The notes under the pieces are model-generated. The model saw only the letters and a list, made by a program, of their open reading frames with translations. It was not told the origin of the DNA and did not search any database. Shown here in pieces: positions 32,601 to 52,104 of a stretch of DNA of 64,000 bases. Position numbers and translations under genes: made by a program. Positions within the stretch are counted from its first letter, which is position 1, and each line of letters begins with the position of its first letter. Source of the DNA: a virus (lineage: Duplodnaviria > Caudoviricetes); IMG/VR virus record IMGVR_UViG_3300022591_000002. One strand, 5' to 3'.

Positions 32601-32948
32601 CCTGTCACAGAAGCTATGCTACCTAAGAAAGCATTTGCAGGTGCGGACAAGAACAAACTAGGCACAGCAGGACAAGCACGTGGAGAACCTAAGAAAAGTC
32701 AAAAGGCTCCACTAAAAGGTCTAATGGTAGGCGAAGATGGTGTTGAAGAAGCCGCTATTGCTATTGCTAAAAAGAAAAAGAAAGATGTTAAAGAAGTAAA
32801 GCAACGCCTTGATCCAAAGTGCTGGAAAGGTTATCGCAAAGCTGGTACAAAGATGAAAGGCGGCAAGCGTGTTAATAACTGTGTCCCAGTTAGCGAAGAC
32901 GTTGAAAGCGTAATGGGTAGTTTGATTGCTATCCTAGAATCAAAATGA
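29631..32948 (+). CDS. multidomain nucleotidyltransferase: Pol-beta-type NTase + ligase-like (KxDG) domain + HIGH-family NTase + CWxGY tail
   Basis: SGSS...GDID...QID; NVKVDG...YEGIVI; GSFVGHIGHE...VGED...SFTKLR; C-terminal CWKGYRKAGTKMKGGKRVNNCVP. Confidence 0.7.
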   Translation: MFLNEIFNRKVVATVIAEGGNVSSQSPGWQGVPGEHKADEIDLKLHNRTFMVGKIADTLYAINNAYAKANGAPIWDPSLINKREALSGSSIQFFDVEGISDDDFLNKLKKQKVGDIDTQVDQQIGDQLHKWLTSVIGKKIGPATFLGFNSSLSGLWLLDDPQVRVQIDFELGPYTQATDKEPAKPTEWFKFSHSSHLDDLSAGIKGVFHKWIYRAIPHAQTSTKYVARVLKKSTKISDEPVTDSDFSFAVTGGQGGGLSLKYKPYINPETGKPGMIGNLPVMQLLSPDQRDYDQNLASQFEKLLGKKPTAQDSAGQQSFVGTIQLLNKYMNEEQREEIAQRFLDLNFSPEAQMITAGDPVRDRDTKFAAIDAMLLGGNGVQPLKIANAKGLRQQAVKMAMEYEAKFNAKPKKAATESFLREADEPEQPAVKAQLRKGMPHLRDLKSVDFLDLLDELHQGNGQFKLQNIPLNVKVDGFGGRFGKNAEGKPFMGTSRTEPRYEAGFLKYHQQKGTEDPEILGRAKVFDELFNEMMAAVKLVDSKLGPKFLVNKQVTCEVLFLPFATETDEGKLKFVGIHYDKLPQGVQLALVPFRVVDADTGEDLPDSQAYIKKLLSVGKSGSVMFIDNSLTQQEALDVTAMVPPLENIEQFKAMLASKKRDQAAEVKAALEPVKLALEKAIINDPNILGKDILGKDYEGIVINSRLGPIKVTSQEQRDVIAAKNAAKASARTERPRGENKTAVVAIGSFVGHIGHEQLFEYTINKAKQVGGDPYLFIGNAQGKDDPIPPAVKVQTWHKMYPNYANHISTVTQEGGSLMQKIKHELINPLPGKPPRYDNIIIMVGEDQANMPIAGALMKAVNKFQGYEHVKVTLEATPRGTGMSFTKLRNILKDPNATPEQQLKVWCQGFDVKKLGAEWIKHLMDLTRKGMGIAPTHVSPSGAKTNMSPKDDDYAINYGKNGMAAQDKQEQPMSESKQPLGRLFNEIIGVASPVTEAMLPKKAFAGADKNKLGTAGQARGEPKKSQKAPLKGLMVGEDGVEEAAIAIAKKKKKDVKEVKQRLDPKCWKGYRKAGTKMKGGKRVNNCVPVSEDVESVMGSLIAILESK

Positions 32949-36014: not shown

Positions 36015-38687
36015 ATGAGTTACGTAGATGCCATCTGGGATCGCGACAAAGACGTTGTACGTGTCGTTGAGCGAGATCCAAAAAAGGGCCGAATCTTTAT
36101 TGATTACCCAGCCCGATATCAATTTTACTATCCCGATCAAAAGGGCAAGTACACATCAATACATGGTGAGTCATTAAGCAAAGTCACAGCTAAGACTTTC
36201 AAAGACTTTATCAAAGAACAAAAAATTCACAGTACCCACAAGTTATACGAATCAGATATTAATGCTGTATTCCGTGTGCTTGAAGAAAAGTATCTAGGTA
36301 CTGAACCTCCCAAATTACACACAGCCTTTTGGGATATTGAGGTGGACTTTGATCCAGAACGCGGCTATGCATCTCCAGAAGATGCGTTCATGCCAATTAC
36401 TGCGATTGCTGTTCACCTACAATGGTTAGATACACTAATCTGTCTTGCAGTTCCTCCTAAGACACTTACAATGGAGCAGGCAAGAGAACAAGTTAAGGAA
36501 TTTCCTAATACACACTTGTTCGAAACAGAAGCAGAAATGCTTGACACTTTCTTACAGCTAATCGAAGATGCAGATATCTTAAGTGGTTGGAACAGTGAAG
36601 GCTTCGATATGCCGTATACTGTTAATCGTATTATTAAAGTTCTAAGCAAAGAAGATACACGCAGGCTGTGTTTATGGGATCATTTCCCAAAGAAGAGAGA
36701 ATATGAAAAATACGGAAAAACTGCGATCACTTATGATCTCGTGGGCCGAGTACACCTTGACTCATTGGAACTTTATAGAAAGTATACATATGAAGAACGC
36801 CACACCTACAGACTTGATGCTATTGGAGAAATGGAAGTCGGAGAGAGCAAAACAGTTTACGAAGGAACTCTCGATCAGTTATACAACAACGACTTCAGAA
36901 AGTTTATCGAATACAACAGACAAGACTGTGCGCTACTAGACAAATTAGATAAAAAACTAAAATTCTTAGATCTAGCCAACACACTGGCGCATGAAAATAC
37001 TGTATTGCTACAGACTACAATGGGTGCCGTTGCTGTTACAGAACAGGCTATTATTAATGAAGCACACCATAGAGGTATGATTGTTCCAAGTCGTCCTAAA
37101 CGTGATGACACAGAAAATAACCAAGCCGCAGGTGCTTATGTTGCTTATCCAAAGAAAGGTCTTCATGACTGGATTGGATCAATGGACATTAACTCACTGT
37201 ATCCATCTGTGATTCGTGCATTAAACATGGGCCCAGAAACTATTGTAGGACAACTGCGCCCTACAAAGACTGATGAATTCATTGAAGAACAAATGACCTT
37301 ACAGAAAAAGTCCTTTGCCGCGGCATGGGAAGATAAGTTTGGCACATTTGAATACGAAGCTGTTATGGATAAGGATCGAGCATTTGAAATTACTGTTGAC
37401 TGGGAAAACGGTGGCAGTGATGTAATGAGTGCCGCAGAAGTCTACAGATTGATCTTTGAAAGCAATCAACCGTGGATGCTAAGTGCTAACGGCACAATCT
37501 TTACACATGAGCAGGACGGTGTTATTCCAGGTTTGTTAAAACGCTGGTATGCTGAACGTAAAGATATGCAGAAAAAATTAAAGGAGGCAATCGATGCTGG
37601 TAACAAAATTGAGGAAGAGTATTGGGATAAGCGACAGCTTGTTAAGAAAATTAACCTTAACAGTCTATACGGTGCTATTCTTAATGCTGGTTGCAGGTTC
37701 TTTGATAAGCGTATTGGCCAATCCACAACTCTTACAGGAAGACAAATTGCTCGCCATATGGCCGCAAAAGTAAATGAAGTGATTACTGGAGAGTATGACT
37801 ATAAAGGCAAGAGCGTAATCTACGGTGACACAGACTCTGTGTACTTTAGTGCGTACTCTAGTCTTAAAAACGAAATTGCCAAAGGACAGATTCCTTGGGA
37901 TAGAGATACTGTTGTTCAACTGTATGATACTATTGCTACTAACGTGAATAGTACATTCCCAGAATTTATGCTGGAAGGGTTCCATTGTCCAAAGAGCCGC
38001 GGTGAGGTTATCAAGGCAGGACGTGAAATTGTTGCCGTCAAAGGCTTGTTCATTACTAAGAAACGTTATGCTGTACTGTATTACGATAAAGACGGCAAGA
38101 GACAAGACGTTGATGGTAAGCCAGGTAAGATCAAAGCTATGGGCTTGGACTTGAAGCGTTCAGATACTCCAGAATTTATGCAGAAGTTCCTAGAAGAAAT
38201 TTTAACTAACGTGCTTAATGGTGCTCAGGAAAAAGAAACTCTAGAACGCATTAGTGAATTCCGAACTGAGTTTAAGGCAAGACCTGGTTGGGAGAAAGGC
38301 AGTCCAAAACGTGCTAACAACATCACAGACTATCAAGAACGTGAAAAGAAAACTGGAAAGATTACTATTCCAGGCCATGTACGTGCTAGTATGAATTGGA
38401 ATACTCTAAAGACCATGCACGGTGACAAATACAGTCAACAGATTGTCGACGGCATGAAAGTAATTGTTTGTAAAATTAAAGACAATCCATTAGGATATAC
38501 TAGCGTTGCATATCCGGTTGATGAATTGCGTTTGCCAAAATGGTTCCAAGATTTACCATTTGACCACTCTGAGATGGAAACAACAATTATTAACAACAAG
38601 TTGGACAATCTTATTGGTGTTTTGGAATGGGATTTAGAATCAACAGTACAAAATAATACATTTGGCAAATTGTTCTCATTTGATTGA
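36015..38687 (+). CDS. family B DNA polymerase (gp43-like) with 3'-5' exonuclease
   Basis: DIEVD (ExoI), GWNSEGFD (ExoII), YNRQD (ExoIII), DINSLYPS, KINLNSLYG, YGDTDS, KKRY. Confidence 0.97.
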   Translation: MSYVDAIWDRDKDVVRVVERDPKKGRIFIDYPARYQFYYPDQKGKYTSIHGESLSKVTAKTFKDFIKEQKIHSTHKLYESDINAVFRVLEEKYLGTEPPKLHTAFWDIEVDFDPERGYASPEDAFMPITAIAVHLQWLDTLICLAVPPKTLTMEQAREQVKEFPNTHLFETEAEMLDTFLQLIEDADILSGWNSEGFDMPYTVNRIIKVLSKEDTRRLCLWDHFPKKREYEKYGKTAITYDLVGRVHLDSLELYRKYTYEERHTYRLDAIGEMEVGESKTVYEGTLDQLYNNDFRKFIEYNRQDCALLDKLDKKLKFLDLANTLAHENTVLLQTTMGAVAVTEQAIINEAHHRGMIVPSRPKRDDTENNQAAGAYVAYPKKGLHDWIGSMDINSLYPSVIRALNMGPETIVGQLRPTKTDEFIEEQMTLQKKSFAAAWEDKFGTFEYEAVMDKDRAFEITVDWENGGSDVMSAAEVYRLIFESNQPWMLSANGTIFTHEQDGVIPGLLKRWYAERKDMQKKLKEAIDAGNKIEEEYWDKRQLVKKINLNSLYGAILNAGCRFFDKRIGQSTTLTGRQIARHMAAKVNEVITGEYDYKGKSVIYGDTDSVYFSAYSSLKNEIAKGQIPWDRDTVVQLYDTIATNVNSTFPEFMLEGFHCPKSRGEVIKAGREIVAVKGLFITKKRYAVLYYDKDGKRQDVDGKPGKIKAMGLDLKRSDTPEFMQKFLEEILTNVLNGAQEKETLERISEFRTEFKARPGWEKGSPKRANNITDYQEREKKTGKITIPGHVRASMNWNTLKTMHGDKYSQQIVDGMKVIVCKIKDNPLGYTSVAYPVDELRLPKWFQDLPFDHSEMETTIINNKLDNLIGVLEWDLESTVQNNTFGKLFSFD

Positions 38688-38735: not shown

Positions 38736-39470
38736 ATGAAAGCAATATTACAAGACATCGTATCTCATACACACAATCTAGGTTTCCTAGAGATTGTTAA
38801 AGTTACTGGTGACGACAAAACAACTAAGATCGATTCCATGGCAGACGATCGTACAGTTATTATGACTGCAGAAACTGCAAATCCATACGCAGATATCCAA
38901 GGCGTATTTGGTATGCCACAACTTAACAAGTTGAAGATTCATTTAGACTGTCCGGAATATCGCGAAGATGCCAAGATTGATGTTGTTAAGGCACAGCGTA
39001 ACGGTGTTGACATTCCAGTAGGTTTACACTTTGAAAACAAAGCAGGCGACTTCCAGAATGATTATCGCTTTATGAACATGGAAGTTATTAACACAAAATT
39101 AAACGTGCCTAAGTTTAAAGGTGTTAACTGGAACGTAGATGTTGTTCCAACTGTTGCAGGTGTACAGCGTTTTAACTTTCAAGCTACTGCTAACAATGAA
39201 CACACAACATTCACTGTTAAAACAGATGGCAATAAATTAGTATTCTCATTTGGCGATGCATCAACACACGCAGGTGAGTTTGTGTTTGCCGAAGGCATTA
39301 CAGGTAAGCTGAAGAACCAAATGAGCTGGCCAGTTGCACAAGTACAAAGCATCTTGAAGATCGCCGATGTAAACAATACAACAATGAGCTTCAGTGATGA
39401 AGGTGCGTTACAAATTACTTTAGACAGCGGTTTGGCAACTTACAAATACATTTTACCAGCACAAGCATGA
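38736..39470 (+). CDS. DNA polymerase sliding clamp (gp45/PCNA-like)
   Basis: 244 aa directly after PolB; two-repeat size and C-terminal EGALQITLDSGLATYKYILP; clamp loader present in the window. Confidence 0.7.
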   Translation: MKAILQDIVSHTHNLGFLEIVKVTGDDKTTKIDSMADDRTVIMTAETANPYADIQGVFGMPQLNKLKIHLDCPEYREDAKIDVVKAQRNGVDIPVGLHFENKAGDFQNDYRFMNMEVINTKLNVPKFKGVNWNVDVVPTVAGVQRFNFQATANNEHTTFTVKTDGNKLVFSFGDASTHAGEFVFAEGITGKLKNQMSWPVAQVQSILKIADVNNTTMSFSDEGALQITLDSGLATYKYILPAQA

Positions 39471-39877
39471 TAAAAGGTTTAATGGGCTCAACAGGAGTTA
39501 TAGTCGACGGCGGTAATACATCATTGCCGTGGACTAACTCAAATGACAGTGACAGCTATCAAGGCATGTTGCGCCTTAGAGGTAGTGACATACAGTACTA
39601 TAACGCAGGAGTTTGGCAGACATTGCCTACTAGTTATGCTACTGTAAGACTTGACGGATCGGTAGAAACTCTGTTACAATGGGTAAGACAGAAGCAACAA
39701 GAAGAAACTGAATTTAAAACAATTCTTGGAAATCACGAACACCCTGCTGTACAGATTGCACAAGAAAACCTAAATAAAGCTATTGCCGCAGTAAAACAAG
39801 CAGAATTACAATTAAAAATAACCAGCAAACTTGCCGAAGATACTTATGTAGGCACAGAGGAAATGCAAGCACCATGA
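39467..39877 (+). CDS. hypothetical protein with C-terminal coiled coil
   Basis: 136-aa ORF, ATGA-coupled on both sides. Confidence 0.6.
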   Translation: MIKGLMGSTGVIVDGGNTSLPWTNSNDSDSYQGMLRLRGSDIQYYNAGVWQTLPTSYATVRLDGSVETLLQWVRQKQQEETEFKTILGNHEHPAVQIAQENLNKAIAAVKQAELQLKITSKLAEDTYVGTEEMQAP

Positions 39878-41394
39878 GCAAACAACCAGTTAATTTAACA
39901 CCATTACAGAAGGACTATGCTGTCTATTTGCCAGCTATTAGTACTTTCTTTTCAACTTACATAAGCAAACAACGTTTTGACAAGTTTGTTCCTGATGATC
40001 GTATTCCTGCGGGATTTGATCGTGGGATTGAAGGTATGAACTTTCTTAATCCGGAAGAAGGGTACTTTACTTACAAGTATGGTTTGTATTCAGCAGGTCA
40101 CGCACAGTTGGATTTGCAAAAGACCATGATTCAAGATGCTATGTTGCAAGATCGTGATCGTGCAAACACAATGATCCTAGGAGACTCCGGTGGTTACCAG
40201 ATTGGTAAGGGTGTTCTTAAATTTGACTGGGCAGACTTTGAAGGCGCAAAAGCCAACAAGACTCGTGATGACATTCTCAATTGGTTAGAACTAACTGCCG
40301 ATTGGTCAATGTTACTAGACGTTCCTACTTGGGCATGTGACCATATTCATAGTCCAAAGACAGGTCTTAAATCATTCCAAGACTGTTTAGATAAAACACT
40401 ACACAACAATGATTACTTTTTGCGTAATCGCTTAGGTCAAACTAAGTTCTTGAACGTGTTACAAGGCAGTGACTGGGAAACCGCAGAAGCTTGGTATAAC
40501 GCAGTAAAGCATTTGCCTACAGAAGGTTGGGCAATGGGTGGTAAGAACATGTGCGATATGGAAGTTGCACTCAAACGTCTTATCATCTTACGTGATGAGA
40601 AATTGTTAGATGATCGTAACTGGATGCACTTCTTGGGTACTGCCCAATTAGACTGGTCATGCTACTTAACTAGTATTCAACGTGAAATCCGTTCAACTGT
40701 AAATGAGAACTTTACAATTAGCTTTGACTGTGCAAGTCCTTTTATTGCAACAGCACACGGTCTAGTTTACACAAACGCACAACACACTAACAAGCGTTGG
40801 TCAGTTATTATGGACAAGGCGCCAGATAACAAGGCACTTGCATCTACAGATATTCCTTTCCCATTCGAAAGCGAAATTGGTAACCGTTTGACAATGAAAG
40901 ATATTTGTCATTACAAGCCAGGTATGTTAAACAAGATCGGTAAGGAAGGCAAAACAAGTTGGGATAGCTTTGGTTATGCTCTAATGATGGCACATAATAC
41001 ATATTGTCATATTCGTGCTGTACAACGTGCTAACGTTCTTGCTGATATTGAAAGCCATAAGATACAGCCAGACTATCGTTACTGGAAACGTGTTAAAGAA
41101 CGTGATATGAGTGATGAATACTCAGATTGGGTTCCACGCAACATTCTGTATTTCAATGCGTTTGTTAAGGATTTGTTTAAATCTCAAAACCCAATGCAGA
41201 TGATTGAAGATGCAAAACCAATGCTTAACAGCATGATGGGTATGCGACTACGTGGTGGTACTGCTTCTAATACATTTAAGAATTTGTTTGAAGAAGAAAC
41301 TGCTACTAACATATTGGGCGTCGAAGATCTTAATGATCCAGATGATGAAAAATTGTTAGAACTCGAACATGAGTTCAACGAACAGAAAGGTTAA
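39874..41394 (+). CDS. dpdA: TGT-fold guanine transglycosylase, DpdA-type (probably DpdA2-like)
   Basis: ILGDSGGYQ (TGT catalytic Asp motif), LDVP, VLQG, GWAMGG, MHFLG, SFDCASP (nucleophile Asp), AHN; folE, queE and queD in the same window. Confidence 0.8.
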   Translation: MSKQPVNLTPLQKDYAVYLPAISTFFSTYISKQRFDKFVPDDRIPAGFDRGIEGMNFLNPEEGYFTYKYGLYSAGHAQLDLQKTMIQDAMLQDRDRANTMILGDSGGYQIGKGVLKFDWADFEGAKANKTRDDILNWLELTADWSMLLDVPTWACDHIHSPKTGLKSFQDCLDKTLHNNDYFLRNRLGQTKFLNVLQGSDWETAEAWYNAVKHLPTEGWAMGGKNMCDMEVALKRLIILRDEKLLDDRNWMHFLGTAQLDWSCYLTSIQREIRSTVNENFTISFDCASPFIATAHGLVYTNAQHTNKRWSVIMDKAPDNKALASTDIPFPFESEIGNRLTMKDICHYKPGMLNKIGKEGKTSWDSFGYALMMAHNTYCHIRAVQRANVLADIESHKIQPDYRYWKRVKERDMSDEYSDWVPRNILYFNAFVKDLFKSQNPMQMIEDAKPMLNSMMGMRLRGGTASNTFKNLFEEETATNILGVEDLNDPDDEKLLELEHEFNEQKG

Positions 41395-41396
41395 GA

Positions 41397-41924
41397 ATGA
41401 AACGTGAATATACTGACGGTATTTCAGAAGACGTCTTGTTCTTTATTGGAACAGAAATTGAACGCACACCTGCATTTAATATGAAAACATTATTTGTAGT
41501 TGGCGTCCAAAATGAGCAGACTATTGTTAACCTAGCCGCAGATAACGGATGCACACATATCTATTTTGGTGCCAATCAAAGTTTTCCAAAACTAGAAACT
41601 AATGATGCAAGCAACTGGCGTCTATGGGAAGATATGATTCAGTATTGCCTAGATGCAGGTTTTTGGTGTACACTAGACTTTGATGTTGCGCAAACTGAAG
41701 GTTTATTAGAAAGCGGTCTGGTTGAGTATAGAAAATTTATTCCGCAGATTTCGGTGAAATTGCCCTATTTACAACAGCTAGGATATAATGCTACAATTAA
41801 GATAGACGATATCGGCTTTGAAGCAACAAATCCAGGTGTCTGGTGTGTACCAATTGGCGCTGTTACACAACGTAAGTATTTTACCAATTGGGATGAATAC
41901 AGTAACGATGAGATTATTAAATGA
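41397..41924 (+). CDS. hypothetical protein inside the dpdA cluster
   Basis: 175 aa; GTEIERTPA..KTLFVVG, HIYFGANQSF motifs; tightly coupled to dpdA and to the QueD paralog. Confidence 0.65.
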   Translation: MKREYTDGISEDVLFFIGTEIERTPAFNMKTLFVVGVQNEQTIVNLAADNGCTHIYFGANQSFPKLETNDASNWRLWEDMIQYCLDAGFWCTLDFDVAQTEGLLESGLVEYRKFIPQISVKLPYLQQLGYNATIKIDDIGFEATNPGVWCVPIGAVTQRKYFTNWDEYSNDEIIK

Positions 41925-42364
41925 GTATTGAAACTATTAAAGAAGCCGCACAACGGCAAATTTGGGTTACCTTTCAAAAGGAAGGCATTCACTGCTATCC
42001 TGCCGCGGCAACAGACCCAGCACTTGCTACAGGAGATGAATATGATGTATCGTTTTTGGGCACTCCTCATCGTCATATCTTTCACTTCCGGGTGTCAATC
42101 GATGTATTCCACAATGACAGGGACATCGAATTCATCCAATTCAAACGGTGGCTCGAGAGTCTCTATACCGGTAACAACACTAATAACGGTTCCGTTTTAG
42201 CACTTAACTACAAGTCTTGCGAAATGATTGCAGATGATTTGTACGACCAGATTGCGTCACGATACCCAAATCGTAACGTAGTAATTGATGTATCCGAGGA
42301 CGGCGAGAACGGATGCATCATTCATTATAACCTTACTCGCCCGTCACAATCCATTGTAATTTAA
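41921..42364 (+). CDS. QueD-like T-fold paralog (DpdL-like, predicted CDG decarboxylase)
   Basis: LGTPHRHIF = LxxxHRHxF replacing QueD CxxxHGH; DIEFIQFK, SCEM, VSEDGENG T-fold motifs. Confidence 0.65.
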   Translation: MSIETIKEAAQRQIWVTFQKEGIHCYPAAATDPALATGDEYDVSFLGTPHRHIFHFRVSIDVFHNDRDIEFIQFKRWLESLYTGNNTNNGSVLALNYKSCEMIADDLYDQIASRYPNRNVVIDVSEDGENGCIIHYNLTRPSQSIVI

Positions 42365-42376
42365 GGAACTTAAAAA

Positions 42377-42622
42377 ATGGCACAGCCAAAGTGGCTCGAC
42401 AAATATCTGACTATGAAGCCTGAAGTCAGCAAGATCTTTGATGATCTTGAGGCATGGCACGATCATTGCCGTTTTGAAATGATCAACTTCAACCCTGCAG
42501 ACTTATACAAGTCTAAGGCGTACCGCGACTGGCAGTACTACAAGTCGAAGGGCAAGCGTCCGTTTGTGCATCGCGATGACCGTGAGCGCAAGCCATATCA
42601 GGGTAAGAACCCTAGATACTAA
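42377..42622 (+). CDS. hypothetical protein
   Basis: 81-aa ORF with AAGGA RBS. Confidence 0.6.
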   Translation: MAQPKWLDKYLTMKPEVSKIFDDLEAWHDHCRFEMINFNPADLYKSKAYRDWQYYKSKGKRPFVHRDDRERKPYQGKNPRY

Positions 42623-42623
42623 T

Positions 42624-43730
42624 ATGACAGTATTCCTAGTTGATCTAGAAGCTGTTGAGACAAGGTACACGGGTCAGTGGAAGACTCATGTACCTGCTCT
42701 CTTACGTAAAGAAGGACACAATGTTCAAGTTATATCCGGACCTACTGATATACCTAGTGCTACTACTCCTGGCGCTTTTCTTAACTTTGGCGGGACTAAC
42801 ATCTACAAAGCTAGTCAAGTGGAGCAGATGGGTCGCCTATTTTGCTCCGGAGCAGTACATCCTGGGGATCATTTTTTGTTTACTGATGCTTGGCATCCTG
42901 GTATCATAAACTTAAAGTACATGAGTGAGTTGTTAGATATTCCTGTAACAACACACGGCTTATGGCACGCTGGTAGTTATGATCCTCAAGATTTCCTAGG
43001 TCGACTAGTTGGCAATAAACCTTGGGTTCGTAGAGCAGAAGCAAGTTTTTATCACGCATTTGATCACAACTACTTTGCTACAGACTTTCATATTAAACTA
43101 TTCTTTGATGAATTGTTAATGGGTGGTTTGAAATCTGAGAATCCTTGGTATGATGACGATATTGCAGAAGTGCTAGGTGGATTAAATCCTAAGATTGTAC
43201 GCACTGGTTGGCCAATGGAGTATATGGATAATACTTTAACTACGTATAAGAACATGGACAAGCGTGATCTTATCTTGTTCCCACATCGTATTGCTCCAGA
43301 AAAACAAGTTGAAATTTTTCGCGATTTAAAAGAACACTTGCCACAATATGAATTTATTGTGTGTCAAGATCAACAGTTAACAAAGAATGAATATCATAAT
43401 TTGTTAGGCGAAGCAAAGTTAGTATTCAGTGCTAACTTACAAGAAACATTAGGCATTAGTTGTTACGAAGGTGCAGTAGTAGATGCAATACCTATGGTGC
43501 CAGATCGTTTAAGTTATACAGAAATGTATTTTGATACATTTAAGTATCCTAGTGAATGGACTGAAAGTTTTGCTTCTTATGAAGCTCATCGTCCAGAACT
43601 GTGTGGTAAGATTATTCAGTATATGAACAACTATACACATATGGTTCCGCAGATTCGTAAGCAAGCAGAATCATTGACAGAGAATTTTTTTAGTGCAACA
43701 GAGTTGTTAAAGAGGTTTAAAAATGAGTAA
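42624..43730 (+). CDS. GT-B fold glycosyltransferase
   Basis: FPHRIAPEKQ and ETLGISCYEG (GT4-like ExFG/E motif), HAGSYD; start at ATG 42624. Confidence 0.72.
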   Translation: MTVFLVDLEAVETRYTGQWKTHVPALLRKEGHNVQVISGPTDIPSATTPGAFLNFGGTNIYKASQVEQMGRLFCSGAVHPGDHFLFTDAWHPGIINLKYMSELLDIPVTTHGLWHAGSYDPQDFLGRLVGNKPWVRRAEASFYHAFDHNYFATDFHIKLFFDELLMGGLKSENPWYDDDIAEVLGGLNPKIVRTGWPMEYMDNTLTTYKNMDKRDLILFPHRIAPEKQVEIFRDLKEHLPQYEFIVCQDQQLTKNEYHNLLGEAKLVFSANLQETLGISCYEGAVVDAIPMVPDRLSYTEMYFDTFKYPSEWTESFASYEAHRPELCGKIIQYMNNYTHMVPQIRKQAESLTENFFSATELLKRFKNE

Positions 43731-44520
43731 AGTAGGTATTATAGGTTTAGGATTTGTAGGTAACGCAATTAAGCAATCATTTTATGACGATACTAATCTA
43801 GTGCTAGTAGATAAAAATCCCGCACTCGGTCGCGATCCGTTTCAAGATTTAACAACCACTGATGGTGTGTTTATTTGTGTTCCAACTCCACAAGATGACG
43901 ATGGAACATGCCATACTGATATTTTAGAAGATATTCTTGCCAAGTTGAAATTAATCAACTACGAAGGAGTTATTATCAGTAAGTGTACTGCACCTCCCGA
44001 TACCTATACACGGCTTAATGAACAATTTCCAAACCTTGTACATGCTCCAGAATTTTTAACTGCGGCTAATGCTGTACGTGATTACACTAGTGGTAAGTTT
44101 GCTATTATCGGTGGTCGTGTTAAAGCCTATCGCGACTTAGCTGAAACAATTATTCGCAGATCACAATTAGATTTACAAGCAGTACACCATTGCACTATTG
44201 CAGAAGCAAGTTTAGCAAAATACGCTATCAATACCTTTATGGCAACCAAGGTTACATTTATGAATGAAATGTATGCTCTTGCCAAAGCTAGCAACTGTGA
44301 TTATAATAAGATTGCACATATGATTAAAAGTGATGTACGTATTGGAAATAGTCATTTACAAGTTCCTGGGCCAGATGGTGCATTTGGGTTCGGTGGAGCG
44401 TGTTTTCCAAAAGATACAAGCGCATTACTCAAATATGCAGAAAGCGTTGACGTACAAATGAATGTATTGGACGCCGCAGTTAAAAAGAATTTAGTACTAA
44501 GATTGACAGAACCTAAATAA
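43723..44520 (+). CDS. UDP-glucose/GDP-mannose dehydrogenase family, short form
   Basis: GIIGLGFVG, ICVPTP, SKCT, PEFL, KYAIN.F.A.KV.F.NE, GFGGACFPKD. Confidence 0.85.
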   Translation: MSKVGIIGLGFVGNAIKQSFYDDTNLVLVDKNPALGRDPFQDLTTTDGVFICVPTPQDDDGTCHTDILEDILAKLKLINYEGVIISKCTAPPDTYTRLNEQFPNLVHAPEFLTAANAVRDYTSGKFAIIGGRVKAYRDLAETIIRRSQLDLQAVHHCTIAEASLAKYAINTFMATKVTFMNEMYALAKASNCDYNKIAHMIKSDVRIGNSHLQVPGPDGAFGFGGACFPKDTSALLKYAESVDVQMNVLDAAVKKNLVLRLTEPK

Positions 44521-44531
44521 TATTGTAAAAT
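44503..44531 (+). promoter_or_regulatory. sigma70-type promoter for folE
   Basis: TTGACA-17nt-TAAAAT. Confidence 0.65.
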
Positions 44532-44571
44532 AACATATAAGTCATCCACGACTTAAACTCGGAGAAATTAA

Positions 44572-45342
44572 TTGACAACATTTACATCAGAAGATTTACG
44601 AAACGTACTAGCTGGCGCAGAACAGCAAGGCGATGACGATAAGAATTATAAAGAAGCATACTTAGGCGATCACCTTCGTTTTAAAATGAAACGTGAAGGC
44701 AAACGTTTTTGGGCAGGTGACAATATCAGCGAATATGTTACTGAAGAGTTTAAAGAAAAACTAATCGACGAAGCAACAGAAGCATTTGAAACAGTACTAG
44801 ATCGATTGCTTATTGATCGTGAAAACGATCCTAACAGCAAAGGCACAGCACGTCGGCTTGCCAAAATGTACTTTAACGAGATAATGGCAGGAAGATATGA
44901 ACCAGGACCAGATGCAACAGCATTTCCAAATGACTCGCAGGATCGTTACGAAGGTATGCTCGTTGTTCGTAGTGAGCTTCGCAGTATGTGTAGTCATCAT
45001 CACCAACCCGTATCTGGTGTTGCTTATATTGGCATTATTGCCGCTCAGAAACTTATCGGCTTATCAAAGTACACACGTATCGCACAATGGTGCGCCAGAC
45101 GTGGAACTCTCCAGGAGGAACTTTGTAATGACATTGCTAGGGAGATCTCAAAAGCAACTGACTCAGAAAACGTAGCAGTCTACGTTCAAGCAGTTCATGG
45201 ATGTTGCGAGAACCGCGGCATTATGGCACACTCTAGTCTAACTCAAACTACTGTATTAAAAGGTACATTTAAAGATGATCCTCATACAAAGAAAGAGTTC
45301 TTTGACAACATCAAACTACAACAAGAGTTTGCTCCAAGATGA
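44572..45342 (+). CDS. folE: GTP cyclohydrolase I with N-terminal extension
   Basis: TARRLAKMY, SMCSHH, GLSKYTRI, LQEEL, HGCCENRG; TTG start with GGAG RBS. Confidence 0.92.
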   Translation: MTTFTSEDLRNVLAGAEQQGDDDKNYKEAYLGDHLRFKMKREGKRFWAGDNISEYVTEEFKEKLIDEATEAFETVLDRLLIDRENDPNSKGTARRLAKMYFNEIMAGRYEPGPDATAFPNDSQDRYEGMLVVRSELRSMCSHHHQPVSGVAYIGIIAAQKLIGLSKYTRIAQWCARRGTLQEELCNDIAREISKATDSENVAVYVQAVHGCCENRGIMAHSSLTQTTVLKGTFKDDPHTKKEFFDNIKLQQEFAPR

Positions 45343-46781: not shown

Positions 46782-46975
46782 GTTATACCGGACCCGTATT
46801 TGATGGCCCTAGTTTAGACAAACAGACAAAATGGATTAAGAAGTATCAAGTTGATCCGTTAAAATTAGGACGTATGTGTGAACAGTTTCCGGGGTTGCAA
46901 AAATCCTGGAATGAGTTTAAACTAGTGTATGAACTTTGTAGGAGTGCAGATGAAACTAACCGAACGATTCCTTAA
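46778..46975 (+). CDS. small hypothetical protein
   Basis: GTG start with GGAG RBS; coupled ORF. Confidence 0.5.
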   Translation: MSYTGPVFDGPSLDKQTKWIKKYQVDPLKLGRMCEQFPGLQKSWNEFKLVYELCRSADETNRTIP

Positions 46976-47438
46976 CTGGTTAGATCGACACGGCCGTAAA
47001 CGTGTCATTATGGATCGCGAATGTAACGAACCTTATTTGGAACGTTACTATGTCTTTTTGAAAGATCGTAAATGGTTTCCATTTAACGTATTCATTCATA
47101 AATTTTTAAAATCAGACCCAGATGAGGTACATGATCATCCATGGCCTTACGCTACCTTAATTCTTAAAGGTGGTTACTACGAATGGATTCCAATGTTTGC
47201 ACCAGATGGAATTAAAGTTGGCGAAACACGCTACTGGCGTGGTCCCGGACATTTCCGTATTTGTAGTCCTAAGAGTTTTCACCGTATTGAATTGCACCCA
47301 GAGGTAACTGCTTGGACTATGTTCATGCCAGGCCCACAAGTGCGTGAATGGGGATTCTTAGTAGGCAAATTTGAGAATCAAAAGTGGGTACACAACGAAC
47401 AATATTTGGAGGCAAGACGTGAACAAGCTGGTAATTGA
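46950..47438 (+). CDS. cupin-fold protein
   Basis: HDHPW...ILKGGYYE...FHRIEL cupin metal motifs; AGGAG RBS. Confidence 0.7.
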   Translation: MKLTERFLNWLDRHGRKRVIMDRECNEPYLERYYVFLKDRKWFPFNVFIHKFLKSDPDEVHDHPWPYATLILKGGYYEWIPMFAPDGIKVGETRYWRGPGHFRICSPKSFHRIELHPEVTAWTMFMPGPQVREWGFLVGKFENQKWVHNEQYLEARREQAGN

Positions 47439-47955
47439 TGATGCAAAATTTAAAGGCCTAGTTGCCAAAATCTGTAGAGATATTTTACTCAGCGATTGGC
47501 GTCCTGATTATATTGTAGGTATTACTAGAGGCGGACTATTGCCAGCTGTAATGATTAGCCAATACTTAGATATACCTATGCATACACTCAACGTAAGCCT
47601 GCGTGATAATCAAACAGATTTAGGTCCGGAGAGTAATTTATGGATGGCTGAAGATGCCTACGGATATAATGCAGAAAACGTAGGCGAGGCGTTGTGCAAA
47701 AACATTTTAGTAGTTGATGACATCAACGATCAAGGCTCAACTATAAACTGGATCATGGAAGATTGGCGTAGTGGTTGCTTACCTAATGATGCACGTTGGG
47801 AACAAGTATGGAATTACAATGTTCGATTTGCAGTAATTATAGATAATTTATCTAGCAAGTGCAATGTAAAAATGGACTACGTTGGTATGGAAGTTAACAA
47901 AGCTGAAAAAGACGTATGGATCGAATTTCCTTATGAGGAATGGTGGGCTAAATGA
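47419..47955 (+). CDS. type I phosphoribosyltransferase (Gpt/Hpt-like)
   Basis: VGITRGGL and ILVVDDINDQGST PRPP-binding loop, W.EFPYE; GTG start with GGAGG RBS. Confidence 0.85.
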   Translation: MNKLVIDDAKFKGLVAKICRDILLSDWRPDYIVGITRGGLLPAVMISQYLDIPMHTLNVSLRDNQTDLGPESNLWMAEDAYGYNAENVGEALCKNILVVDDINDQGSTINWIMEDWRSGCLPNDARWEQVWNYNVRFAVIIDNLSSKCNVKMDYVGMEVNKAEKDVWIEFPYEEWWAK

Positions 47956-48236
47956 ATTCGCAAGAAAAAGAAGTAATGGATATTCTGCAAGAAGAATGTG
48001 CAGAAGTTATTCAAGCAGTTAGTAAAATTAGTCGCTTTGGTTTAGACAATTACAAACCAGGCAAACCTAAAACTAACCGCGAACATCTAGAAGAAGAACT
48101 AGGTGATATGTTGGCTATGATTGATATTTTGCAAAGTATGGATATTGTTAGCTATGCTAATATCGAACGTGCCCAAGAAGCAAAAATTGAAAAACTTAAG
48201 AAATGGTCTAACATTTATGAAAACAATATTACCTAA
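47952..48236 (+). CDS. MazG-like NTP pyrophosphohydrolase
   Basis: LQEECAEVIQAVSK...LEEELGDMLA. Confidence 0.85.
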   Translation: MNSQEKEVMDILQEECAEVIQAVSKISRFGLDNYKPGKPKTNREHLEEELGDMLAMIDILQSMDIVSYANIERAQEAKIEKLKKWSNIYENNIT

Positions 48237-48402
48237 AGAAGGCAGTAGATGGTCCGGCACTGAGAGGGAAGTTTTTATTGTCCTGCATACCGTTGAAGTA
48301 GACGGTCACACTTGGGTCCATTACAGAAAAAATTCTACTGATACAGAATATAGCTGTTACGTGGAAAGTTTTTTACAAAGATTTAATCCTATATTAGAAT
48401 GA
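48217..48402 (+). CDS. small hypothetical protein
   Basis: MKTILPKEGSRW...CYVESFLQRF; coupled ORF. Confidence 0.55.
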   Translation: MKTILPKEGSRWSGTEREVFIVLHTVEVDGHTWVHYRKNSTDTEYSCYVESFLQRFNPILE

Positions 48403-48758
48403 CACAATTAAAAGGCTTAGTTCCAAAAGGCTGGGGTTCAGAATTTATCTGGGCCACTAATGACAAGTACTGCGGCAAGTTTATGAACTTCAACGCAGGT
48501 GCAAAATTTAGTATGCACTTCCATAAAGATAAAGAAGAAACTTGGTATATACAATCAGGTAAATTTATTATCCGCTGGATTGATACTAACAACGCAGAGG
48601 TTTACGAGAAAGAAGTTAGTGATGGTACCGTATGGCATAACCCCCCGTGCATGCCACATCAAATCGAATGTATCGAAGCAGGTACTGTTATTGAAGTTTC
48701 TACTCCAGATTCAGTAGAAGACAATTATCGTGTAGGCAAGGGCGATAGTCAAAAATGA
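48399..48758 (+). CDS. cupin (mannose-6-phosphate-isomerase-like)
   Basis: KGWGSE, SMHFH..KEETW, PHQIE, EVST.DS.ED.YR. Confidence 0.75.
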   Translation: MTQLKGLVPKGWGSEFIWATNDKYCGKFMNFNAGAKFSMHFHKDKEETWYIQSGKFIIRWIDTNNAEVYEKEVSDGTVWHNPPCMPHQIECIEAGTVIEVSTPDSVEDNYRVGKGDSQK

Positions 48759-49156
48759 CAAAGGTAATTGTTAATGGAACTTTTGATATACTACATCGCG
48801 GCCATTTGGAACTACTTGACTACGCTAAAAGTTGTGGCGGGTATTTGCTTGTGGCTATTGACACAGATCGCCGTGTAAAAGAATTAAAAGGCGACAGTCG
48901 TCCTATTATTAGTCAGTATGATCGTAAGTATCATTTAGAAATGCTTAAACCAGTCGATGAAGTTAGACTGTTTGATAGCAAAGAAGAACTTGTAGAAATT
49001 ATTAAGAATTATAATCCAGACATTATGGTCAAGGGCAGTGATTACAAAGGCCGTAGTGTAGTTGGAGCAACATACGTACCAGAGGTAATTTATTTTGAAC
49101 GACTCGGCGAATACTCAACAACCAAAACAATTGAACATATTACTGCTAGGGGATGA
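48755..49156 (+). CDS. HldE C-terminal (RfaE-II)/TagD-like nucleotidyltransferase
   Basis: VNGTFDILHRGH, ELKG..RPI, VKGSDY, YSTT. Confidence 0.82.
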   Translation: MTKVIVNGTFDILHRGHLELLDYAKSCGGYLLVAIDTDRRVKELKGDSRPIISQYDRKYHLEMLKPVDEVRLFDSKEELVEIIKNYNPDIMVKGSDYKGRSVVGATYVPEVIYFERLGEYSTTKTIEHITARG

Positions 49157-49859
49157 CGGTTTAGACGTCTATCAGTTTGGTAGCGTAGATCGTATTAGCC
49201 CAGAAGCACCTGTTCCCGTCTTTAAACATTCTTATGATATTCATCGGGCTGGCATGGCTCGTAACGTTTGCGAAAACTTAGAAGCATTGGGTTGTAAAGT
49301 AAGTTTCCTACGAGGCCAAACTAGCATCAAGACTAGACTAATTGATATTCGCAGTAAGCAACAAATTGTTAGGATTGACAACGATGTTGAATCAGATCCT
49401 ATTGTGTTTGAAACTAATATTCCCCCAGTGTATGATGCCATTGTTATTAGCGATTATAACAAAGGCACAATTACTTACGAACTAATTGAAGATCTAGTAA
49501 AAACTGTTAAATGCCCTATCTTTGTTGATACAAAGAAAACTGACCTAGCACGATTGGAAGGCTGTATTATTAAAATTAATAAACACGAATACAGTTTGTT
49601 AACTAGCAAGCCAAAAACAGGATTAGTTATTACACAGGGAGAAAATGGTGTTGTATGGGACGGTTGGGCATTTGGCGCAAAGACTGTAGAAGTAGCCGAT
49701 GTGTGTGGAGCAGGGGATACGTTTCTATCTGCACTTACATACCAATACCTAAATACAAACGACATGCACATGGCAATTAACTTTGCAATAGATGCAAGTG
49801 CAGTTACAGTACAACATTTAGGTTGTTACGCACCCAAACTGGAAGAGATAAATGGATAA
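49095..49859 (+). CDS. HldE N-terminal (RfaE-I)-like PfkB sugar kinase
   Basis: RISPEAPVPV, DYNKG, VDTK, DVCGAGDTF. Confidence 0.85.
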   Translation: MNDSANTQQPKQLNILLLGDDGLDVYQFGSVDRISPEAPVPVFKHSYDIHRAGMARNVCENLEALGCKVSFLRGQTSIKTRLIDIRSKQQIVRIDNDVESDPIVFETNIPPVYDAIVISDYNKGTITYELIEDLVKTVKCPIFVDTKKTDLARLEGCIIKINKHEYSLLTSKPKTGLVITQGENGVVWDGWAFGAKTVEVADVCGAGDTFLSALTYQYLNTNDMHMAINFAIDASAVTVQHLGCYAPKLEEING

Positions 49860-50253
49860 TCATATTTTTAAAGGTATCCCAGATGATATCGAAGATAGTG
49901 AAGCACCGTGGACTGAACTAGTCAACGAAGATTATCATGTAAAAGTTTTCAAGGACAAGTATCCTTGTACCCCCGGGCACCTATTGTACGTGCCTAAATA
50001 TAATACGTTAGGAGTATTAAGTGATGCGTTTGAAGATGCTGTTAGATACGGTAAAGGAATGGTGGAAGCCGGAGAATGGGACGGTTTCAATGTTGGCCTT
50101 AACTATGGCCCATGTGCGGGTCAAACTGTTAACTGGCCCCATATCCATCTTATACCGCGCAGAACAGGCGATGTCGAAGATCCGATTGGGGGCGTCCGAA
50201 ACACAATCCCAGGCAAAGGCAATTATCACTCGCCGGACTATAGAGCAGATTAA
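49852..50253 (+). CDS. HIT-family hydrolase
   Basis: DKYPCTPGHLLYVP, N.G..AGQTV..PHIHLIPRR.GD. Confidence 0.82.
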   Translation: MDNHIFKGIPDDIEDSEAPWTELVNEDYHVKVFKDKYPCTPGHLLYVPKYNTLGVLSDAFEDAVRYGKGMVEAGEWDGFNVGLNYGPCAGQTVNWPHIHLIPRRTGDVEDPIGGVRNTIPGKGNYHSPDYRAD

Positions 50254-50746: not shown

Positions 50747-50967
50747 AGACAGCTAAAGAAATATTTGACGAAACAATGGGGCGTGTTAAACGCCTACAAG
50801 TGTTTGAAATTAAACGTGAAGTAGGATCTAACTGGATTCCGCAAGGTACAATTCCTTTTGACATTAGTGCCAGGAATGGTATTGCTACATTCAAAGTGTA
50901 TGCTGAATTCTTGCAAGATGCAGAGGATCAAGTAACGCAATTTTTAGAGAAAGATGAAGATGAGTAA
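50743..50967 (+). CDS. hypothetical protein
   Basis: 74-aa coupled ORF with AGGA RBS. Confidence 0.6.
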   Translation: MKTAKEIFDETMGRVKRLQVFEIKREVGSNWIPQGTIPFDISARNGIATFKVYAEFLQDAEDQVTQFLEKDEDE

Positions 50968-51811
50968 GATTAAAGTCGCAGAATTATTTTACAGTATACA
51001 AGGTGAAGGACGGTACATGGGTGTTCCGTCTGTTTTCTTACGTACATTTGGCTGTAATTTTAAATGCCAAGGATTTGGCATGCCTAAAGGAGAACTAAGC
51101 AATGAAGCTGAAAATGTTAACCCAGAAAATTATAAGCAATATAGAGACTTACCATTGGTCAGTACAGGGTGTGATTCATATGCTAGTTGGGATCCTAGGT
51201 TTAAGCATCTTAGCCCTTTGCTGGATAGTTCTGCGATTGCCGATGCTATTGTGGATACGTTACCGTACAAAGAATGGCTCGACGAACATCTCGTAATTAC
51301 CGGCGGTGAGCCATTGCTAGGTTGGCAGAAGGCTTACCCAGATCTGTTAGAACATCCTAAGATGGATAAACTTAAAGAAATTACTTTTGAAACAAACGGT
51401 ACAATGCGTTTGACAAAAGACTTTAAAGAATATCTTAAAGCATGGAAATGGAAACACGAAGGATTTATTGATCGCGAGATTACCTTTAGTGTAAGTGCCA
51501 AACTTCCATGTAGTGGTGAGCCCTGGGAGGATGCCATTAAACCCGAAGTAGTCTGCGACTATGAAAATTATGGTACTACCTATTTAAAATTTGTAATTGC
51601 TACAGAAGAAGACCGCGATTATGCTCTTAAAGCCGCAAGTGAATACCGTGCCGCAGGATTTAAAGGACATGTTTATCTAATGCCAGTTGGCGGTGTTGAA
51701 AGTGTATATGCGTTGAATAACAAGGCAGTAGCCCTAATGGCAATGAAACATGGACTCCGTTATAGTGATCGATTACAAGTCCCATTGTTTAAAAATGAGT
51801 GGGGAACCTAA
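50960..51811 (+). CDS. queE: 7-carboxy-7-deazaguanine synthase (radical SAM)
   Basis: ELFYSIQGEG, FLRTFGCNFKC...GCDS, VITGGEP, ETNGT, SVSAK, SDRLQ. Confidence 0.9.
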   Translation: MSKIKVAELFYSIQGEGRYMGVPSVFLRTFGCNFKCQGFGMPKGELSNEAENVNPENYKQYRDLPLVSTGCDSYASWDPRFKHLSPLLDSSAIADAIVDTLPYKEWLDEHLVITGGEPLLGWQKAYPDLLEHPKMDKLKEITFETNGTMRLTKDFKEYLKAWKWKHEGFIDREITFSVSAKLPCSGEPWEDAIKPEVVCDYENYGTTYLKFVIATEEDRDYALKAASEYRAAGFKGHVYLMPVGGVESVYALNNKAVALMAMKHGLRYSDRLQVPLFKNEWGT

Positions 51812-52104
51812 TGGCTGGGTTCCAGTCAAAAAGATTAATGAGCCTAAGCAGAATGAGTGACGAAGTACAATGTTCACCTCCGTCGGAAGATTGGGGATTG
51901 AACAGAGCAAGATTTTGGGAACTGAAATTATGCTGGCTTCCTAAAAAATGTTTTCTTACTCAAAAATCTCTTTGGGGCAAACGTGCGTATCACGGTGAGA
52001 ACTGGATCACCGGTCCTGGCGACCCTGTTGTTAATCATTACTGGATCGACAAACATGAATTTCTTATTTGGTCACTAAAAGGTAGAAATGTTCGAAACTA
52101 TTAA
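51811..52104 (+). CDS. hypothetical protein
   Basis: TAATG-coupled to queE; Trp-rich. Confidence 0.55.
   Translation: MAGFQSKRLMSLSRMSDEVQCSPPSEDWGLNRARFWELKLCWLPKKCFLTQKSLWGKRAYHGENWITGPGDPVVNHYWIDKHEFLIWSLKGRNVRNY

Follow-up and report, generated by a model that had tools for sequence, protein, structure and literature searches.

A stretch of 64 kilobases (kb) from one uncultured jumbo phage (IMG/VR record IMGVR_UViG_3300022591_000002), which is the part of this genome covered by the analysis and is called the window below, carries a predicted GT4-like glycosyltransferase (GT) among genes for the synthesis of 7-deazaguanine and its exchange into DNA. The GT is very probably a functional member of the 7-deazaguanine pathway, because it is linked to deazaguanine genes in every context adequate for judging. 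The end product is, on balance, probably a glycosylated 7-deazaguanine in DNA. A broader proposal is that a dedicated GT4-like family glycosylates DNA 7-deazaguanine in jumbo phages as an anti-restriction measure and in alphaproteobacterial chromosomal islands as a self-marking of the restriction-modification kind; this is tentative and falls somewhat short of being probable. Modification of DNA by 7-deazaguanines and decoration of DNA pyrimidines by sugars are each known, and DpdA-type enzymes exchange the guanine of DNA. The first-pass annotation of the window, made from the sequence alone, knew of no sugar-bearing 7-deazaguanine in DNA. The literature search agrees with it, as no paper was found on such a base or on a link between DpdA and a glycosyltransferase (Iyer et al. 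2013, NAR 41:7635, lay outside the search). The genes of the window on which the reading depends are the following (aa, amino acids).

68-598, + strand: T-fold protein of the QueD/PTPS family, candidate 6-carboxytetrahydropterin (CPH4) synthase (PF01242, 5.3e-15)
39874-41394, + strand: remote TGT-superfamily transglycosylase (DpdA-like), 506 aa (DSGGYQ and FDC motifs)
41921-42364, + strand: DpdL-type QueD paralogue, 147 aa (LGTPHRHIF; phrog_17812, 1.2e-33)
42624-43730, + strand: predicted GT4-like retaining GT-B glycosyltransferase, 368 aa (AF2, Foldseek and the E-x7-E motif)
44572-45342, + strand: GTP cyclohydrolase I, FolE (PF01227, 2.2e-39; NCBIfam FolE, 2.5e-40)
50954-51811, + strand: divergent QueE, 7-carboxy-7-deazaguanine synthase (NCBIfam QueE models, 2.5e-14 to 5e-10)

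On the + strand, the run containing the GT is ordered polB (a family B DNA polymerase), p244, p136, the DpdA-like gene, p175, the DpdL-like gene, p81, the GT, a dehydrogenase gene and FolE, where the p-labels denote open reading frames (ORFs) described further below. From p244 to the dehydrogenase, the genes meet in overlaps of 4-8 nucleotides (nt) or gaps of 1-12 nt, and a spacing of about 50 nt is seen at polB/p244 and at dehydrogenase/FolE. The tightly coupled polB-to-folE run reported by the first-pass annotation is thus borne out by coordinates and junctions. The queE gene near 51 kb and the queD gene near 0.1 kb are likewise matched where it had placed them.

Outside the window, the GT has TGT/DpdA or further 7-deazaguanine genes as neighbours in 15 bacterial islands and in no fewer than seven phage lineages besides this one. 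Linkage was judged only on sufficiently long contexts, several diverse GT representatives being on short contigs or without DNA. Co-occurrence of the GT family with dpdA, named beforehand as a point on which the proposal could fall, was found in every lineage examined, bacterial islands included. Among 80 IMG/VR relatives of the window's clade, to which all counts of close relatives refer, the linkage is seen in all 80, and the core consists of polB, p244, DpdA, p175, DpdL, p81, GT, FolE, p169 and QueE. The PA5oct-like Pseudomonas jumbo phages carry polB, p244, a DpdA-like gene, GT, DpdL, a PRT-like gene and QueE, and the T4-like Acidovorax phage ACP17 carries QueD, FolE, a p175 homologue, DpdA3, GT, DpdL and QueE. 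FolE of Xanthomonas phage BUDD is followed by GT, TGT, DpdL and QueE. Sinorhizobium phage Phosso has polB, a clamp-like gene, DpdL, GT, FolE and QueE together, its DpdA-like gene lying elsewhere in the genome. QueE, a second GT paralogue, FolE, polB, DpdL, GT and DpdA are clustered in a metagenomic lineage (loci L095-L097) with a GT of 28% identity, and in Burkholderia phage BCSR5 the GT and DpdL are about 3 kb apart. No well-supported GT member was found away from deazaguanine genes; the exceptions are weak partial matches of the PhiXhv-12 type.

Within the window's clade, the GT is 76-84% identical and is conserved as strongly as polB. Clustered at 50%, the GT family has 1088 representatives. 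More than 8000 protein clusters pass E <= 0.001 for the GT, the 120 best of them being at least 80% identical and coming from contigs of up to 358 kb. This is an abundant clade of uncultured jumbo phages, very common in metagenomes. As a separate observation, the lineage L095-L097 has two GT paralogues per cluster (L095:1-636 and 7974-9092; L096:2736-3953 and 7974-9092), which hints at two sugars or two acceptor sites.

A scan of prokaryotes, with each species represented by one genome, found GT homologues of full length (40-52% identity) in 15 alphaproteobacterial loci, which belong to Pelagibacterium, Ochrobactrum, Devosia, Azospirillum, Methylobacterium, Shimia, Sulfitobacter, Roseobacter, Thalassobius and one unclassified Rhizobiales genome. 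In each of the 15 islands, adjoining genes encode, in this order, a YhhQ-like membrane protein, the GT and a DpdA-like protein (L100-L116; for example, L100:6089-9041 and L107:5364-9068). The DpdA-like neighbours match the 506-aa protein of the window with hidden Markov model (HMM) E-values of 1e-30 to 1e-70. The membrane protein upstream of the GT is about 178 aa long and hydrophobic throughout a 14-member alignment. All three of the proteins scanned match PF02592 (Vut_1), with 31.9 bits (above the 27.2 cut-off), 25.0 and 24.7 bits. YhhQ/COG1738 has been linked to preQ0/preQ1 transport, by way of literature that is cited in PMC5699537. DpdL is also present in three Methylobacterium islands, and 12 of the 15 islands have neither DpdL nor FolE within 8 kb. 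The islands are without phage replication genes and do not have phage-like surroundings; integrase fragments occur in seven bacterial loci, and the Pelagibacterium island, the one annotated for its defence neighbours, lies between SMODS and patatin (CBASS-type) genes and an OLD-family ATPase-TOPRIM nuclease. The trio of transporter, GT and DpdA looks like an undescribed self-marking or defence module. The constant unit of phages and islands is a 7-deazaguanine source, a TGT-family transglycosylase and the GT. By the bacterial DpdA-GT pair, an 853-aa protein is also conserved (L102:3433-5994, - strand; homologues in six loci). Its C-terminal part (about 560-853) resembles GT-A (GT2) glycosyltransferases in a low-confidence Atlas model, and the protein could provide a second sugar-transfer step.

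The start of the GT, previously set at TTG 42564, is corrected to ATG 42624. Its identification as a GT-B glycosyltransferase is confirmed at the level of fold by AF2 and Foldseek. The AF2 model (pLDDT 92.6, pTM 0.90) has the two Rossmann domains of the GT-B fold. Foldseek against PDB gave 420 matches at E <= 0.001 with TM up to 0.66, the best being glycogen synthase, BshA, PglA and MshA (E down to 2e-10); UDP-glucose:tetrahydrobiopterin glucosyltransferases appear at ranks 25-44. In alignment A1 (40 members, 28-51% identity), whose residue numbers are +1 relative to the true start, E275 of the E-x7-E motif is nearly invariant and E283 is invariant. The basic residues K214, R223 and K228 are conserved in the same 40 members. 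Because the fold is accompanied by an intact E-x7-E motif and conserved basic residues, the GT looks catalytically competent; it is best described as belonging to a divergent, unnamed GT4-like family.

The 506-aa protein is, as far as motifs and profiles indicate, a remote member of the TGT/DpdA superfamily, and its homology suggests DNA base exchange as the activity. Residues D104, S105, G106, G107, Q109 and D285 are invariant among 33 phage and bacterial homologues, and the same catalytic residues are invariant in a seven-sequence alignment across subfamilies. The profile of the 33-member subfamily aligns with DpdA3 of BUDD, ACP17 and phage phiST at an hhalign value of 94.6% (E 6.6e-8, 196 columns). 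A mixed profile (A2) searched against PDB matched nearly exclusively TGT chains, the best of them at a marginal E of 0.013. Pfam and NCBIfam scans of the protein gave no match. In the E. coli model, DpdA3 enzymes showed no activity (PMC10516641). Complex prediction for DpdA and GT returned a score of 0.00 without controls and counts neither way. The isoelectric points of GT (5.45) and DpdA (5.54) are both acidic and do not tell a DNA acceptor from a small-molecule one.

FolE, QueD and QueE make 7-carboxy-7-deazaguanine (CDG) from GTP by an established pathway. The sequence assignment of FolE in the window is unambiguous. The QueD of the window has the motif CxxxHGY, as against CxxxHGH of canonical QueD. 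The QueE scores fall below the curated NCBIfam cut-offs, and the protein is 30% identical to the PA5oct gene annotated as QueE. The first-pass annotation had taken the other T-fold protein, with its LxxxHRHxF motif, as DpdL-like, and both the motif and the homology to DpdL of phiST and ACP17 uphold this. LGTPHRHIF, starting at window position 42056, fits LxxxHRHxF and stands in place of the CxxxHGH of QueD. The HMM of the DpdL clade matches phiST gp040 (1.2e-19) and ACP17 ASD50405 (8.7e-48), with tblastn identities of 33% and 53%, respectively. DpdL is a family defined by LxxxHRHxF, for which decarboxylation of CDG is the proposed, as yet unproven, activity (Cui, Hutinet et al., NAR 2023, PMC10516641). 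The context of DpdL is found in the window as well, where the DpdA-like gene, FolE, QueD and QueE are present and a QueC signature is absent. The earlier statement that queC is missing holds for the window, a scan of all frames of the 64 kb for the PP-loop motif SGGxDS having come out empty. In Vibrio phage Bakedbeans, DpdL forms the C-terminal domain within a fusion protein of 383 aa (gp176, L092:6212-7363), preceded by an N-terminal part of about 260 aa.

The proposed pathway would begin with FolE, QueD and QueE turning GTP into CDG, which the DpdL-type T-fold protein would decarboxylate to 7-deazaguanine, as proposed in the literature. The DpdA-like enzyme would then swap a DNA guanine for 7-deazaguanine, if its homology is a guide to its activity. 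The GT would move a sugar from a nucleotide-sugar to the deazaguanine, most likely once this has been placed in the DNA, possibly earlier; this step is suggested by the conserved linkage together with the intact catalytic motif. The glycosylated 7-deazaguanine so formed would block restriction and other DNA-targeting defences. In the bacterial islands, DpdA and GT would work on a base supplied by the YhhQ-type transporter rather than by biosynthesis, and the cell's own DNA would be marked. The DNA of PA5oct resists cleavage at a number of restriction sites that contain G, and nucleases recognising hypermodified DNA attack it, its modified G being left unidentified in that work (PMC12191111). 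Expression of ACP17 dpdL and dpdA in E. coli gave no deoxy-7-deazaguanosine (dDG), and the authors of that work suggest that further enzymes may be needed (PMC10516641). Both the restriction resistance of PA5oct and the failed ACP17 reconstitution fit the glycosylation reading.

The remaining genes of the cluster are given below, followed by what is known of the sugar and nucleotide enzymes among them.

36015-38687, + strand: family B DNA polymerase (polB), head of the run, 51% identical to the PA5oct polymerase
38736-39470, + strand: p244, conserved (phrog_12062, 1.9e-36)
39467-39877, + strand: p136, an ORF of the run
41397-41924, + strand: p175, conserved alpha/beta protein, in 72 of 80 relatives, clade core
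42377-42622, + strand: p81, small conserved ORF between DpdL and GT, in 77 of 80 relatives
43723-44520, + strand: truncated protein of the UDP-glucose/GDP-mannose-dehydrogenase family, 265 aa, accessory (PF03721, 3e-12; PF00984, 1e-23)
46929-47438, + strand: p169, conserved cluster protein, in 64 of 80 relatives and also in locus L099
47371-47955, + strand: purine phosphoribosyltransferase (PRTase), XPRT/HGPRT-like (PF00156, 1.1e-12; NCBIfam XPRT, 5e-9)
47952-48236, + strand: MazG-type nucleotide pyrophosphohydrolase (PF03819, 1.8e-7)
48399-48758, + strand: cupin-domain protein, accessory (PF07883, 2e-7), in 0 of 80 relatives
48755-49156, + strand: HldE domain II-like sugar-1-phosphate nucleotidyltransferase, accessory (TIGR02199, 1.1e-31, below cut-off), in 1 of 80 relatives
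49095-49859, + strand: HldE domain I-like PfkB sugar kinase, accessory (TIGR02198, 1.2e-39, below cut-off), in 0 of 80 relatives
49852-50253, + strand: HIT-family nucleotide hydrolase/transferase (PF01230, 8.8e-9)
52088-52699, + strand: 2-oxoglutarate (2OG)-Fe(II) oxygenase of the TIGR02466 family, variable neighbour (PF13759, 3.9e-17; TIGR02466 above cut-off)

Downstream of folE, as far as 52.7 kb, the order is p169, PRTase, MazG, cupin, the split HldE-like pair, HIT, QueE and the 2OG oxygenase. The first-pass gene list omitted the PRTase, MazG, cupin, HldE-like pair, HIT and 2OG oxygenase genes.

The dehydrogenase had been called a UDP-sugar dehydrogenase and proposed as the sugar-donor enzyme of the GT, for instance for a uronic acid. 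The family assignment stands, and the reading as a canonical UDP-sugar enzyme does not, since the C-terminal UDP-binding domain (PF03720) is missing. The protein consists of the NAD-binding and central domains, with the motifs GLGFVG (GxGxxG) and GGACFPKD including the catalytic Cys. Its alignment with a 450-aa enzyme covers residues 72-297 of the latter, and it has its own end at residue 265, FolE following 50 nt on. It occurs in 37 of the 80 relatives. All 38 members, the window included, are 256-307 aa long; GxGxxG is kept in 38 of 38 and GGxCxxKD in 35 of 38, and the cluster is, to judge from these alignments, a maintained family despite the truncation. The dehydrogenase was not detected at the PA5oct, ACP17, BUDD, Phosso or bacterial-island loci. 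Being truncated, patchy in the relatives and undetected in other lineages, it is doubtful as a donor enzyme. The proposal that the GT adds a sugar to dDG or to its 7-carboxy counterpart, dCDG, accordingly keeps its pathway linkage and the fold and motif of an active GT, while the role of the dehydrogenase as dedicated donor enzyme is not supported. As a speculation, the dehydrogenase might oxidise a sugar already attached.

The sugar-tailoring genes appear to be interchangeable accessories, which may vary the sugar. In 23 sister loci, oxidoreductases of the GFO/IDH/MocA and Zn-ADH-like kinds are placed between DpdA and p175 (L009:7084-7968, L039:7916-8821) and replace the sugar genes of the window. 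That the GT stays constant while the sugar enzymes around it change is what would be expected if the sugar itself is being diversified. The 2OG oxygenase was considered as a general maker of a hydroxyl group for glycosylation and rejected, being found in one of the 80 relatives and not detected at the loci of other lineages. Some members of the clade have a gene for an HhH-GPD base-excision glycosylase-like protein or a dCMP/cytidine deaminase in the variable region that follows the GT (L033:12613-13032, L015:12293-12814).

As for the other proteins of the cluster, the identity of polB is supported by the homologue in the relative L004, which matches PF03104/PF00136. The first-pass annotation had named p244 a sliding clamp. 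What supports this name is the depositors' label of the Phosso homologue, which is 35% identical, the PA5oct homologue being labelled by its depositors as a structural protein; a sequence search of PDB was empty, and the clamp identity was dropped. A homologue of p175 lies beside DpdA3 in ACP17 (HMM E 2.5e-23). With an AF2 model of pLDDT 84, p175 was tried as a missing enzyme and set aside: the best Foldseek match, to STAS/RsbS, had E 0.012, no fold match being convincing. A wide structural search reached Z 7.3 at best, with partial QueE barrels at Z 5.5-5.7 and GH5 barrels at similar values, all of which is background. An Atlas feature search with p175 gave weak glycosyl-hydrolase-like leads only, at 0.82. 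Pfam and NCBIfam scans of p169 gave no match. Nothing in the phage collection matched the 5.5-kb region at the nucleotide level. Elsewhere in the window there are a UvdE-type UV endonuclease (PF03851, 3.7e-40) and an Fe/Mn superoxide dismutase at 809-1906 and 2001-2546. Three very long ORFs are also present, at 3901-11760 (2619 aa), 11762-15073 (1103 aa) and 29631-32948 (1105 aa).

Several points weigh against glycosylation of 7-deazaguanine in DNA. The chemistry is the weak point: 7-deazaguanine is without a hydroxyl group, the candidate acceptors being N2, O6, a ring carbon or the carboxyl of CDG (as a glycosyl ester), and the choice of the acceptor atom lies beyond sequence evidence. The GT had no match in Pfam, NCBIfam or PHROG, curated GT4 models such as PF00534 and PF13439 included. 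The 50 best PDB fold matches listed for the GT include no T4-type alpha- or beta-glucosyltransferase, and the 30 best listed from Swiss-Prot do not include QTMAN/GTDC1. The TGT-family assignment of the DpdA-like protein is remote in sequence terms (the hhalign value of 94.6%), and its subfamily profile alone found no PDB chain. The PRTase and MazG could make and police a pool of 7-deazaguanine nucleotide by a pre-replicative route, and they allow a nucleotide-level route with the GT acting elsewhere. Finally, some phages do without the GT. Among those with DpdL, phiST lacks it and has plain dDG, and RHph_I1_18, Bakedbeans and Ahp1 have none at the locus; Vibrio phage 2.275.O has a DpdA of the same subfamily without a GT. 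From the existence of DpdL/DpdA phages without GT it follows that the sugar step would be an add-on and not a requirement, and the nested distribution fits an optional extra step atop base exchange. The DpdA of 2.275.O (L148:7923-14949) is accompanied by QueF, a YhhQ-like transporter, QueC, an amidotransferase and FolE. A 370-aa neighbour of this DpdA was tried as a divergent GT and discarded, as neither GT HMM matches it.

Among other explanations, the one that fares best is that the GT acts on the free base or nucleotide, the PRTase making the nucleotide and MazG and HIT shaping the pool, so that the product would be a DpdA precursor or a soluble metabolite. The PRTase has an intact PRPP-binding motif and is present in 42 of the 80 relatives and in PA5oct, with MazG and HIT adjoining. 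The nearest structural neighbours of the GT, namely BshA, MshA and the tetrahydrobiopterin glucosyltransferase, take small-molecule acceptors, and in the bacterial islands a base transporter stands directly beside the GT. A precedent is HuiG, which works on a soluble 7-deazapurine in huimycin biosynthesis. However, the PRTase was not detected at the ACP17, BUDD, Phosso or bacterial-island loci, and TGT/DpdA adjoins the GT in all but Phosso. Since the pocket of TGT reads the base at N1, N2 and O6, a base that carries a sugar on one of these atoms should not be inserted. Action on the free base or nucleotide is considered unlikely.

A target outside the pathway, such as a protein, sugars of the host envelope or some other base in DNA, is a good deal less likely still; the GT would then be merely co-transcribed with the replication genes. 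Such a role is suggested by the PhiXhv-12-like Xanthomonas phages, in which weak partial GT members lie beside GlmS-like and deacetylase genes with no deazaguanine genes in the 15-kb stretch, and by the ADP-heptose-type genes of the window, which usually serve lipopolysaccharide. Yet the HldE-like genes are nearly unique to the window, and adjacency to TGT/DpdA or DpdL is kept across differing phage gene orders and in islands without replication genes.

Slightly less probable again is that the GT glycosylates one of the pterin intermediates from the FolE/T-fold branch, on the model of cyanobacterial biopterin glucoside synthesis, with DpdL as a PTPS-like pterin enzyme. The tetrahydrobiopterin glucosyltransferases at Foldseek ranks 25-44 speak for it, as does the fact that the GT often directly adjoins DpdL, whose activity is only proposed. 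These BGluT matches are, however, no better than the generic GT4 ones, 12 of the 15 islands combine GT, DpdA and transporter without DpdL or FolE within 8 kb, and phiST, which has DpdL, contains dDG. Least probable of all is a non-catalytic, scaffold or DNA-handling partner of DpdA with a role like that of DpdB in bacterial Dpd systems: it would suit the constant adjacency to a TGT-family enzyme and the inactivity of DpdA3 alone in E. coli, but variable sugar-metabolism genes cluster around the GT, and over 28-51% identity the E-x7-E motif and the basic residues that bind phosphate vary little or not at all, which is unexpected for a degenerate enzyme.

Glycosylation of DNA 7-deazaguanine, the preferred reading, can be set beside several known systems. 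The T4 alpha- and beta-glucosyltransferases are GT-B enzymes that glucosylate 5-hydroxymethylcytosine in DNA after replication and protect it from host nucleases. The scheme proposed here shares with them a phage GT-B enzyme and a nucleotide-sugar decorating an already modified DNA base. Unlike in T4, where a hydroxymethyl pyrimidine is made as a nucleotide, the base here would be a 7-deazapurine brought in by base exchange, and the GT of the window has the GT4 E-x7-E motif. In animal tRNA, QTMAN/GTDC1 and QTGAL add a sugar to a 7-deazaguanine derivative in nucleic acid, queuosine, and GTDC1 is a GT-B enzyme. The acceptor in that case is, however, the cyclopentenediol of queuosine, which these phages cannot make.

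The nearest published system is the DpdL/DpdA3 pathway to dDG in phiST, of which the window is a variant with a constant GT and p175, p81 and p169. In both, FolE, QueD, QueE, DpdL with LxxxHRHxF and a remote TGT-family enzyme occur, MazG is nearby and a replicative polymerase adjoins; no QueC is reported. The window adds the GT, p175, p81, p169, the PRTase and sugar genes. Members of the GT family are missing from phiST, and plain dDG is what was measured in its DNA (Cui, Hutinet et al., NAR 2023, PMC10516641). The DpdA of phiST is 259 aa long, as against 506 aa here, and belongs to a distinct subfamily linked at profile level only. In the bacterial Dpd system (dpdA-K; dPreQ0 and dADG; PMC10164549), a TGT-family DpdA in a genomic island likewise places a base of the queuosine pathway in DNA, and the cell marks its own DNA. 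The islands described here differ by another DpdA subfamily, the GT4-like enzyme and the YhhQ-type transporter. HuiG is a GT4-type enzyme (PF13439) glycosylating a preQ0-derived 7-deazapurine (bioRxiv 10.64898/2026.04.15.718813). Huimycin and dapiramicin, however, are soluble actinomycete metabolites whose clusters are defined by the absence of dpdA. In glycosylation of the HuiG/dapiramicin type, the sugar is presumably placed on the exocyclic 2-amino group.

The proposal is directly testable by liquid chromatography-mass spectrometry, since carriers are in culture (PA5oct, ACP17, BUDD, Phosso and the bacteria). If true, it may explain both why ACP17 DpdL and DpdA failed in E. coli and what the modified G is in PA5oct, a therapeutic phage. 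It would add a new enzyme family acting on DNA purines, useful for labelling DNA that contains 7-deaza-dG. As the clade is very common in metagenomes, the chemistry would be widespread and would matter for sequencing and for restriction-based methods. In the alphaproteobacteria, a new self-marking system would be at hand. The modified base itself would be the first sugar-bearing purine in DNA and a new chemical class in natural DNA.

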